From IMG/VR virus record IMGVR_UViG_3300032303_003166, positions 1-64,000 of that record: a stretch of DNA of 64,000 nucleotides. The stretch is one strand, 5' to 3'. How positions within the stretch are numbered: the stretch's first letter is position 1; the number at the start of each line of letters is the position of its first letter. Of this stretch, positions 35,394 through 38,318 are shown piece by piece. The notes beneath the pieces were generated by a model. That model saw nothing but the letters and a program-made list of their open reading frames with translations. It had not been told where the DNA came from and made no database searches. The DNA is from a virus (lineage: Duplodnaviria; Caudoviricetes). A program made the translations under genes and the position numbers.

Positions 35394-35559
35394 TTAATAT
35401 CCTTTATAAATTTTTTCGCATCTCAAAGCCAAGAGATTACTAGGCTTCTTTCCAAGACACTCATATTAATATATAGTTAGTTATTAGACAACAAAAGGAC
35501 CCTCACGGGTCCTAATGTATTATACAAGTTACATTTAAGAGTTAACTGTAATTTATATG

Positions 35560-36141
35560 TTACAGTTGTACTTTTGTAAGTTTTTTTACTCCAACCAAAG
35601 ATAAGTAATAAGCTCCAAAAAGAACAGCTGAATAAACAGTATCACTCATTATAGTATTCTTAAAGAAAGGAATTGCTGCCACATAGCATTGCATTAAACC
35701 GTCCCATGTCATGGCGTACATGCTAGGCCATGCAGGAATTAAATTAATCCAGGTCACAAAATTAGATATGATAAAAAATGTTAATGAAGCTGCAGGAATT
35801 GTTGCAAGAGTAACCAATGGATTCTTAGATTTATTCATGAAGCCATAAAGAATAATTGGTAAAAATGCCAAATATACCGCTGGGCTTCCTGAAAGATATT
35901 GATACACACTTAGGCCATATGTATTGGTTAGCGCAAGAATTACATCGCTAAGCGCCAGACCTGCAAAAGGTATAAACCATCGTGAATTTCCTGCTAGCAT
36001 TGTTCCAGCAAAAAGAGCAATTGCGCCTATTGGAGAAAAGTTGTCTGCCACATGAAATATCCTGGCAACTATAGCCAGGAAAATAAGAGATAAAGATATT
36101 ACCACAGTCACATTGGACTGCTTAGAGAAAAATGATTGCAC
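35560..36141 (-). CDS. DUF6580-like membrane transporter (ECF S-component-like), probable cobalamin uptake
   Basis: About 5-6 TM helices; NFSPIGAIALF.G, FFIISNF..W, CYVAAIPFFKNT. GTG start 36141 lies 5 nt after GGAGG. Confidence 0.75.
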   Translation of the reverse strand: MQSFFSKQSNVTVVISLSLIFLAIVARIFHVADNFSPIGAIALFAGTMLAGNSRWFIPFAGLALSDVILALTNTYGLSVYQYLSGSPAVYLAFLPIILYGFMNKSKNPLVTLATIPAASLTFFIISNFVTWINLIPAWPSMYAMTWDGLMQCYVAAIPFFKNTIMSDTVYSAVLFGAYYLSLVGVKKLTKVQL

Positions 36142-36143
36142 GT

Positions 36144-36230
36144 CGACCTCCACATCGATTAGTGATTTTTCAGGTCTGACTTTTTATGACAGTCGGCGGA
36201 GGCCGGCGCTGAATTCCACAGCTTTCTGAT
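36144..36230 (-). ncRNA. Minimal cobalamin riboswitch
   Basis: UCAG-AAA-GCUG-UGGAAUU-CAGC-GCCGGCCUCCGCCG-ACUGU...AGUCAGACCUGA then hairpin CGA-UGUGGAGG-UCG. Shows T-loop, B12-box-like segment and CCUCC/GGAGG kissing pair. Confidence 0.8.
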
Positions 36231-36275
36231 TAATAGTTAGTAAGCTACTATTTAGATAGGAATATAACATAAGCC

Positions 36276-38318
36276 ATGTCAGACATTAAAATTGTTCAAA
36301 ATACTTCAGTGATTCTTGATGATCTCATGGCCGGAGACATGTCCACTCTTTCCAGAGAGCAGCTTAAAAACTTTGATTTTAATAAAATTCAACTGGCGCT
36401 AGACTATCTGGTAAATAATGAAAATCTTTCAGAGGCCAAAAAGCTTCACTATATTGGAAATTCTTGGAAAATCTTTTATAAGCGTAAACCACCAACTCCT
36501 GAAGAGTTTATGACTGAAGAGTGGATAGGTCCACTTGCAGAGCATACTTATCCACGAGTAAAACAAACATTCTTGGATTTTATGAATCCTACAACGCCTT
36601 ATCGCAATCTAATTCTATACCCGCATATGGGATGGGGAAAAACGTACGCTGCTATGTTTATGTCACTCTATTGTGATACGCATATTGCGTTAATGAGAAA
36701 CGCTAAAAGATATCTAGGCTTGAACCCCGCATCTCCAATAGCCCGAGCATTTTTATCATTTTCAATTGAAAAAGTCCAAGAAACGTTACTTGAGCCATTT
36801 CTTCTTGCTCTTGAAAATAGTCCAATGTATGAGAAGGTTCATACACGAGACGGCATGGCCAAAAGAGAAGCAGAACAAGCTCATAACAATCAGATAGATA
36901 AAATATTCTGGACCACAGCTTCTCCTAGCTCTCATATTCACATATCCAATGGAACTCAAATTAAAATTGTTTCTAGCTTACACAGACTTCTAGGTCTAAA
37001 TCTGGTGGGTGGTGCAGTTACAGAGCTCTCTCACTTTAGAGAGGCCGGAATGACAGACGACTATATCATGGATACATTTTGGGAACTTAGAAACCGCGTT
37101 CAGGTTCGTACCATGAAAGGTAATTATTGGGGAAGAATTATCCTAGACTCGTCTCCTGATGATATAAGCGGAGCTGTTGATCAGTATATAAATGGTAACG
37201 CAAAAGAAGATCACACCAATATGATAGTACGTGGATCCATGTGGGAGTGGTCGCCAGAAAATCATGACATGAATAATTTATTTCCTATTTATAGAGGTGG
37301 AGCAGGGCGTCCTCCTCAAATACTAGAAGACTCAGAAATAAATAATTTTGATGTTAGTCAGGTTCTTTGGGTTCCTGGAGACTTAAAAAACTCATTTAAG
37401 AATAATCCAGTAAAATCCCTAAGAGACCTGGCTGGGCTACCATCTGGTAGTCAGGCTCGTTTATTTATGAATTATGAAAGCATTGATAGCTGTTTTTCAA
37501 CCAAATTAAAAAATCTTTATACCTATATTACTGCATCAACCAAAGATGATCCAAAAGATCTCATATGGAATAAAGTGCACTCTCAATTCTTTAAAAATGA
37601 TGGGCTAAAAGTTTCTTTCTATTATAAGCCGCATCTTCCACGAGCAATACACATTGACTCTAGTACAACAGGAGACATAACTGGTATTGCAGCTACTCAT
37701 GTGGAAAAGAATGCAGATACCGGTGAGATAATGTTTATAACTGACTTCAGTATTGCAATTGCTCCTGATGGAGGAAGAATAAGTCTTGATGCTGTAAAAT
37801 TCTTTATTGAAGATTTAAGAAATAAAGGTCATATGAATATTGCTCAAGTCTCATATGACACATTTCAATCAGAGGCATCAGTTCAATATCTTGAAAGTCG
37901 TGGCTTTAATATTGCCAAGCTATCAGTAGACAGATCAACTGAACCGTATTATCACCTATACTCTATGGTAGAGTCTGGGAGATTTAAGATGGGAAGAAAC
38001 ATATTCTTTAAGAATAATTTAAAATCTTTAGAAATTGTAAAAAGAAATAAAACAGGATCTCCTAAAGTAGATCATACCAACGGTCCAATACCTGATCCAC
38101 ATGGCGATTCTGCTTGGGAAACCAGCATTATTGGAATGAATGCAAAAGACGTATCTGACGCTGTATGCGGATCAGTATACGCAGCAAACATGATTTTGGC
38201 TCCACTAGGAGCTCCTGAGATCTGGAATGAAAGCCATGAAGGAATTCTTAGTAAAGATCTTGCAAAACAAAATTTGCAAGATTTTATGGACAAAATGGGA
38301 ATAGGAATAGCTATGTAG
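36276..38318 (+). CDS. terL: Terminase large subunit
   Basis: Walker A-like MGWGKT, ILDSSP coupling motif, RNase-H IHIDSS, YDTFQS, KVDH and KDVSDA. Confidence 0.85.
   Translation: MSDIKIVQNTSVILDDLMAGDMSTLSREQLKNFDFNKIQLALDYLVNNENLSEAKKLHYIGNSWKIFYKRKPPTPEEFMTEEWIGPLAEHTYPRVKQTFLDFMNPTTPYRNLILYPHMGWGKTYAAMFMSLYCDTHIALMRNAKRYLGLNPASPIARAFLSFSIEKVQETLLEPFLLALENSPMYEKVHTRDGMAKREAEQAHNNQIDKIFWTTASPSSHIHISNGTQIKIVSSLHRLLGLNLVGGAVTELSHFREAGMTDDYIMDTFWELRNRVQVRTMKGNYWGRIILDSSPDDISGAVDQYINGNAKEDHTNMIVRGSMWEWSPENHDMNNLFPIYRGGAGRPPQILEDSEINNFDVSQVLWVPGDLKNSFKNNPVKSLRDLAGLPSGSQARLFMNYESIDSCFSTKLKNLYTYITASTKDDPKDLIWNKVHSQFFKNDGLKVSFYYKPHLPRAIHIDSSTTGDITGIAATHVEKNADTGEIMFITDFSIAIAPDGGRISLDAVKFFIEDLRNKGHMNIAQVSYDTFQSEASVQYLESRGFNIAKLSVDRSTEPYYHLYSMVESGRFKMGRNIFFKNNLKSLEIVKRNKTGSPKVDHTNGPIPDPHGDSAWETSIIGMNAKDVSDAVCGSVYAANMILAPLGAPEIWNESHEGILSKDLAKQNLQDFMDKMGIGIAM

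Follow-up and report, generated by a model that had tools for sequence, protein, structure and literature searches.

The window analysed here (positions 1 to 64,000 of a virus record 93.6 kb long, with a G+C content of 36%) carries on its minus strand an 89-nt leader RNA, 36230-36142, that probably works as a translational OFF switch, a pared-down phage form of a cobalamin-clan riboswitch, and controls a corrinoid importer. The element itself is real and conserved. The recognisable phage genes are those for a terminase, a major head protein, a head protease, a DNA polymerase, and a thymidylate synthase. The completeness of the 93.6-kb contig is estimated at only 31%, so that the whole phage genome probably measures about 300 kb, two-thirds or so of it missing from the contig. 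The leader and the DUF6580 gene behind it form a one-gene unit between the terminase gene and a terminator-like hairpin, with the following features:

36276-38318, plus strand: divergent terminase gene, on the other side of the switch-DUF6580 unit from the terminator-like hairpin
36261..36268, minus strand: second promoter-like motif GTTATATT, extended -10 type, with a presumed start near 36254
36234..36242, minus strand: phage promoter motif TACTAACTA of the ACTAANTA family, from motif statistics, with a putative +1 at A36230
36170..36229, minus strand: aptamer, four-way junction P3-P6, from the AdoCbl-II match, the minimum-energy fold and covariation
36229-36226, minus strand: 5' strand of P3, from the sequence
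36222-36208, minus strand: P4 hairpin, from the sequence
36205-36194, minus strand: P5 hairpin, with L5 CCUCCG at 36202-36197, from the sequence
36192-36176, minus strand: P6 hairpin, set by covariation (CUG/CAG, AGU staying in L6)
ending at 36170, minus strand: 3' strand of P3, from the sequence
36159..36169, minus strand: single-stranded linker of 11 nt containing no G, from the sequence
36143..36158, minus strand: P13 hairpin of 4 bp, its 8-nt L13 pairing with L5, from sequence and covariation
36151-36147, minus strand: RBS GGAGG within L13, 5 nt before the GTG at 36141
35560..36141, minus strand: DUF6580 membrane protein, 193 aa, six helices, from Pfam (PF20221, E 1.5e-39) and AlphaFold
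35496..35513, minus strand: intrinsic-terminator-like hairpin that ends the one-gene DUF6580 unit
35481, minus strand: next ACTAACTA motif after the terminator-like hairpin, from a motif scan

The leader and promoter motifs named in the initial annotation are all present on the minus strand, in a leader that was called GC-rich and has 49% G+C against 36% for the genome. Its aptamer comprises J3/4 (GAAAG), the L4 T-loop, L5, an L6 ending in AGU, and a short J6/3, without P1/P2 and without J1/3. P6 had been drawn as GACU...AGUC; the hairpin is there, in the different register given by covariation. The final hairpin, P13, does hold the RBS 5 nt before the GTG, with one base pair more than was drawn, and the G-free linker satisfies published linker rules (PMC5028336). 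An upstream GTG at 36153 was considered as a start and rejected: homologues begin at the codon equivalent to GTG 36141, which is therefore taken as the start.

An Rfam scan of the window at gathering score returned no family. With the covariance-model search that had been proposed as a check, AdoCbl-II does match the window copy, at 17.5 bits (E 0.4) and thus short of the gathering cut-off of 36.5; despite this score the alignment puts P4, L4, P5, P6, and L6 in register. The folding energy of the window element alone is not significant (z -1.4), and the aptamer part folded alone has the four-way junction as its minimum-energy structure. What raises the element above chance is its conservation, with covariation, among relatives. 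Nine distinct copies were found on phage-like contigs, eight of which precede a DUF6580 gene or its operon: the element lies directly before DUF6580 in loci L003, L004, L006, L205, L207, and L296, and before the first operon gene in L203 and L295. The nearest DUF6580 homologues, on phage-like contigs, form one clade (SH-aLRT 95 in a quick tree), and every locus of this clade with DNA at hand carries the element. L205 has a second switch copy as well (1291-1399, within 1291-1597), directly after a tRNA gene and before a 66-aa ORF without a Pfam match.

Model R1, built from four copies, recovers the held-out copy of L203 at 49 bits and both L205 copies at 54 and 26 bits; model R2, built from seven copies and without Rfam input, recovers the held-out copies of L295 (58.7 bits) and L296 (21.5 bits), two loci picked solely on the prediction from the protein tree that they belong to the same clade. 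The E values of held-out recovery range from 1e-8 to 1e-11. Across seven copies 91.6% of the cells are paired, a level reached in none of 500 shuffles and compared with 28-46% in slid controls, and 14 of 17 pairs have two-sided compensatory changes, found in all four helices, P3-P6; since the seven sequences are related and their alignment was fitted to the model, these pair counts are not probabilities. A separate shuffle test, with a descriptor partly derived from these sequences, is not independent evidence. At the sequence level, the L4 T-loop consensus and an AGY at the end of L6 are found in all nine copies, and together with the covariation of P3-P6 they bear out the cobalamin-riboswitch-type architecture read earlier from the window. 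Scores of relatives on AdoCbl-II include a range of 27.6-35.2 bits, with E as low as 9e-5, and across L203, L205, L295, and L296 they run from 21.9 to 35.2 bits; all copies fall below the cut-off of 36.5, and so standard annotation misses them.

Between L207 (7896-8010) and the window (36229-36132), 98 bases are identical, covering the whole switch including the otherwise variable linker. This identity runs from P3 into the gene start, beyond which the coding regions are about 60% identical; the DUF6580 protein of L207 is 56% identical to that of the window, and its N-terminus resembles that of relative P0002. By sequence comparison, the 98-base identity is taken to mark the 5' boundary of the element at P3, and it may reflect a recent exchange of the RNA module as much as selection. 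The terminase of L207 (5190-7870, minus strand) lies in two ORFs of 235 and 595 aa, the first ending in a Hint-like domain, which suggests a split or frameshifted intein.

Applied to 27 bacterial genomes, R2 gave three matches, all of them class I cobalamin riboswitches that score 89-114 bits on RF00174. In these genomes, which bear DUF6580, no copy of the variant was found among the up to 145 candidates scored per genome, a weak absence. Around 81 other viral class II RNR loci, R1 detected no copy within 10 kb, and a search of 42 other viral records with R2 was equally negative; the variant therefore is not general in phages with NrdJ. A pattern scan of viral contigs for the P13 hairpin gave 69 matches, real only in two near-identical phage contigs, and a scan of viral contigs with a longer core pattern gave none.

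The leader had been placed under a promoter of the phage's own. As a motif by itself, TACTAACTA does not carry this claim, being seen once against 0.61 expected and thus not above chance; what makes it convincing is solely its membership of the ACTAANTA family, because that family is concentrated outside ORF bodies (42 of 56 matches, in a genome with 18% non-ORF space). An ATG stands exactly 3 nt past the ACTAANTA motif in 10 matches, compared with three or fewer at every other offset; if these mRNAs are leaderless, +1 would lie four bases past the motif, which in this leader is A36230, the base next to P3 on its 5' side. Many genes of the window start exactly 3 nt past a ACTAANTA motif without an RBS (examples are 15464, 18170, 24619, and 53975 on the minus strand, and 44942, 56023, and 61006 on the plus strand), which suggests that the phage makes a class of mRNAs that are leaderless; ACTAANTA recurs in L003, L004, L006, L203, L207, and L295, over a range of 33-54% G+C. 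The second motif, GTTATATT, has 19 of its 31 genome matches outside ORF bodies, with an ATG 6 nt later in four, and a matching motif is kept in L207. A start near 36254 would lengthen the 5' leader by about 24 nt; this extension folds on itself and is not conserved, and hence is no source of P1 or J1/3.

The core of the element is remodelled. All nine variant copies are missing the J1/3 T-loop, and counting from the putative +1 there is no room for it 5' of P3. J6/3 reads R-Y-C in seven of the nine, where this C pairs with the initial G of J3/4, compared with A-R-Y-G in the canonical class II copies examined alongside; in eight of the nine it is one base shorter and has a pyrimidine as its second base. 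The initial annotation was right that peripheral helices are missing, and overlooked this altered 'B12 box' strand. In class IIa, the final two bases of J6/3 are the docking site of the J1/3 T-loop, which is reported to matter for binding and for strong repression (PMC6158498). We infer that a local G-C pair took over from this long-range J1/3-J6/3 contact, both partners of which were lost together. A lower stem under P3, not found in the window copy, is kept in L203, L205, L295, and L296, and in L203, L295, and L296 the stretch just below P3 is short and either paired or mismatched; L6 is a plain loop of 6-11 nt.

Pairing of L5 with L13 over the RBS, claimed as CCUCC with GGAGG, is supported by the relatives: five to six of six positions pair in seven copies, and L004 alters both loops together, to CUCCU with AGGAG. 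In the window there are five contiguous Watson-Crick pairs, four of them G-C. Two registers fit, one contiguous over 6 bp and one anchored at the end with two L13 bases bulged; the last position is paired in seven of seven copies in the end-anchored register versus six of seven in the contiguous one, and in the former all seven tabulated copies pair the final base of L5 with the U that invariably opens L13. In env8, repression no longer depended on ligand when the kissing loop was perfectly paired, and natural switches keep an unpaired base (PMC5028336); because perfect pairing is reported to abolish regulation (PMC5028336), the exact complementarity of CCUCC and GGAGG is a caveat as well as a support. 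When the whole leader is folded by nearest-neighbour rules and without ligand, a long L5/L13 duplex hides the RBS, at an opening cost of 8.0 kcal/mol in the window and of 2.5-6.7 in relatives, and the minimum-energy fold has the RBS closed in the window and in L003. The folding model ignores tertiary contacts and co-transcriptional order; the ligand-free closure that it predicts is the main doubt about switching.

The assignment of the protein to DUF6580, with a fold like that of an S-component, is supported by a PF20221 score of 136 bits (curated cut-off 27) and by an AlphaFold model (pLDDT 92.8, six helices) whose best structural match is BtuM (Z 15.1, rmsd 2.9 over 166 residues). Nothing but BtuM and ECF S-components appears among the 15 best structural matches (Z 9.5-15.1); S-components for unrelated substrates reach Z 10-13, and a CbrT chain Z 6.9. 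As modelled, the protein has an S-component fold, and by fold and gene context it is a probable corrinoid importer. Searches of its sequence against PDB, PHROGs, NCBIfam, and cultured phages gave nothing useful, and no sequence match to BtuM or CbrT was found. Identity with BtuM itself was rejected on 10% sequence identity, the lack of a sequence match, and the lack of a Cys at the Cys80 position. The sole Cys, Cys152, lies in loop 5 by a roughly collinear alignment with BtuM; it is present in 102 of 112 family members and replaced in the near relatives P0001, P0004, and P0123 (by Ser, Phe, or in an Ala region). The DUF6580 family comprises 3,167 clusters at 50% identity.

The gene context in relatives provides the B12 link that had been suggested for this family. 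The order in L203 is class II RNR (NrdJ, scoring 552 on TIGR02504 with a cut-off of 400), TSCPD subunit, thioredoxin, the element, TonB receptor, TonB, DUF6580, and cobalamin adenosyltransferase; L295 repeats it, with a class II RNR domain. L004 has DUF6580 with receptor and TonB, L006 DUF6580 with TonB, and a P0002 contig carries an adenosyltransferase. The TonB receptors score far below the BtuB cut-off, and their substrate therefore rests on context. The putative importer is 'solitary', as initially described, on this contig, but not in close relatives, where it is found with TonB receptor and TonB. Neither an RNR nor an adenosyltransferase or TonB gene was found in the 93.6-kb contig or its two sister contigs, all three of which are fragments; the search of this contig, 31% complete, thus did not reveal the nrdJ gene expected elsewhere in the genome, which adjoins the B12 cassette in two relatives (L203 and L295). 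In L295 (2437-5176), the class II RNR just upstream of the cassette is split by a group I intron with a LAGLIDADG endonuclease. A further large phage, L214 (3356-12643), has NrdJ, a TSCPD subunit, and a cobalamin adenosyltransferase, with no switch copy in 22 kb, and L003 (2880-2990) has near its DUF6580 gene a very short tmRNA-like gene with a tRNA-like domain and only about 19 nt inside.

Canonical AdoCbl-II switches, at 58-93 bits, precede DUF6580 in nine loci of a separate marine viral clade. Among L010-L087 many viral contigs have DUF6580 without a switch directly upstream, AdoCbl-II being above cut-off in 9 of 49 records. A canonical AdoCbl-II aptamer followed by DUF6580 is seen in the marine contigs L022 (4776-7306), L050 (4842-7360), and L057 (4815-7375), and also in L039, L051, L060, L061, and L077; a conserved segment of about 85 nt without an Rfam match lies between the two, with the L5 complement inside, and in L022, L050, and L057 an ORF of about 600 aa follows DUF6580.

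In the mechanism that we propose, transcription would start at the phage promoter, one base before P3, and the aptamer would fold first, as the four-way junction backed by covariation, closed by an L4-L6 contact presumed by homology. At low corrinoid, ribosomes would bind at the RBS within L13 and translate the DUF6580 gene; bound corrinoid would stabilise the L5-L13 kissing loop, for which the pairing is supported and the dependence on ligand is predicted, so that the RBS is hidden and synthesis is off. The protein, for which fold and context are established and transport is predicted, would carry corrinoid over the inner membrane of the infected cell. Most likely the imported corrinoid would feed a B12-dependent class II RNR for phage DNA synthesis; alternatively, its consumers could be host enzymes on which the phage relies. 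A wider reading stands at about an even chance: that the element is a phage-restricted aptamer subclass of about 60 nt, the smallest described, able to bind corrinoid although its J6/3 is rebuilt and the J1/3 T-loop is missing; that a group of large phages run their own feedback-controlled B12 supply (receptor, TonB, DUF6580, adenosyltransferase) for class II RNR; and that the DUF6580 proteins form a new B12 importer family of the inner membrane.

Several other explanations have to be weighed against a corrinoid-responsive switch. Chance likeness in an intergenic spacer would agree with the sub-threshold Rfam score and the non-significant folding z-score of the window copy; on sequence grounds it is already refuted by the conservation results, that is, by the E values of held-out recovery, the covariation, and the 98 bases shared with L207 against a coding identity of about 60%, and we regard its probability as negligible. 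It is very unlikely that the element no longer senses a ligand and acts as a fixed dampener, in which the pairing of L5 with the RBS holds the level of a membrane protein low. Such a dampener would fit the five contiguous Watson-Crick pairs with their four G-C, the RBS closed in the ligand-free minimum-energy folds of the window and L003, and variant g of PMC5028336, but it needs no covarying P3, P4, and P6, no T-loop, and no AGU in L6. Moreover, the aptamer alone folds first into the junction, and under the end-anchored register two bases of L13 would stay unpaired, which is also the case in env8, with the last L5 base paired to the invariant U in seven of seven copies.

The other two explanations accept a functional sensor. 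An RNA of cobalamin-riboswitch descent, the remodelled pocket of which now senses a particular corrinoid form, cobinamide, or another small molecule, is quite unlikely: the departures do cluster at the ligand face (no J1/3, a short J6/3, the first G of J3/4 paired into P3), and the copy before the 66-aa ORF of L205 precedes a gene without a B12 link, yet the gene context is B12-specific (adenosyltransferase, class II RNR) and L4, L6, L5, and L13 are all kept. Nor is it likely that the switch is a true B12 sensor while DUF6580 transports cobalt or a lower-ligand base, or serves only to bind or sequester corrinoid. S-components for unrelated substrates come close behind BtuM, there is no sequence match to BtuM or CbrT, and the single Cys is off the BtuM position and lost in near relatives; however, BtuM is the top fold match, and DUF6580 is encoded between TonB receptor/TonB and adenosyltransferase, in a pathway that lacks just the step of corrinoid transport over the inner membrane.

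The corrinoid-responsive OFF switch is our preferred reading. Riboswitches are rare in phages, and neither a cobalamin riboswitch in a phage nor DUF6580 was mentioned in the literature searched, the coverage of which was incomplete; new are the reduced form of the RNA and the association of this form with NrdJ and adenosyltransferase. Should the switch work, a virus senses a host cofactor and regulates its own uptake of it, and its replication is tied to the availability of B12; the cassette in related phages suggests that these viruses themselves keep track of the cofactor and replenish it. In this RNA nature has made a deletion experiment, without the J1/3-J6/3 contact thought necessary for strong class II regulation, and because this contact is missing, an 89-nt construct tests the minimal cobalamin-binding core and its ligand selectivity. 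The order receptor-TonB-DUF6580-adenosyltransferase beside NrdJ provides a testable substrate for the large uncharacterised DUF6580 family and, for bacteria that have no BtuCDF, a candidate for the B12 transporter missing from their inner membrane.

A phage-encoded glutamine riboswitch is known from phage Melnitz, and phage glutamine riboswitches are described as rare (PMC9004378). In both cases the phage carries its own metabolite sensor; the ligand class differs, and here gene and neighbours form a coherent pathway of import, activation, and use. With BtuM of Thiobacillus denitrificans (8OVV; PMC6072759) the DUF6580 protein shares the six-helix S-component fold, a similar size, and an encoding near TonB receptors with no ECF partner in the neighbourhood, whereas the invariant cobalt-ligating Cys80 belongs to BtuM and the DUF6580 protein has its Cys152 elsewhere, replaced in some relatives. 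On the RNA side, the features of Rfam clan CL00101 are found: the P3-P6 junction, the L4 T-loop and L6 AGY sequences, and the L5-L13 complementarity over the RBS. With class II, and env8 Cbl-IIa in particular (RF01689; PMC6158498, PMC5028336), the element has in common the P3-P6 four-way junction, the L4 T-loop, a short L6, a 6-nt L5, an 8-nt L13 that contains the RBS, the G-free linker and, as predicted for the phage element, translational control of a transporter; two unpaired L13 bases would be a further likeness to env8 if the end-anchored register holds. Unlike class II, it has neither the J1/3 T-loop nor, in the window copy, P1, its J6/3 is R-Y-C instead of A-R-Y-G, its kissing-loop bulge is predicted at L13 positions 2-3 instead of 6-7, its aptamer takes about 60 nt compared with 81 model positions and scores below the gathering score, and it is phage-encoded under a phage promoter. 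The core is shared with Cbl-IIb and class I (RF00174) as well (PMC7367189), and the segment below P3 in L203, L295, and L296 is as in Cbl-IIb; in contrast to Cbl-IIb, there is no P6 hairpin extension and a paired lower stem occurs in some relatives only, and in contrast to Cbl-I (RF00174), there is neither a P2 module nor a large P6 extension. By these sequence features the element has a class II-like working plan and yet is placed outside Cbl-IIa, Cbl-IIb, and Cbl-I, and therefore fits no described class.
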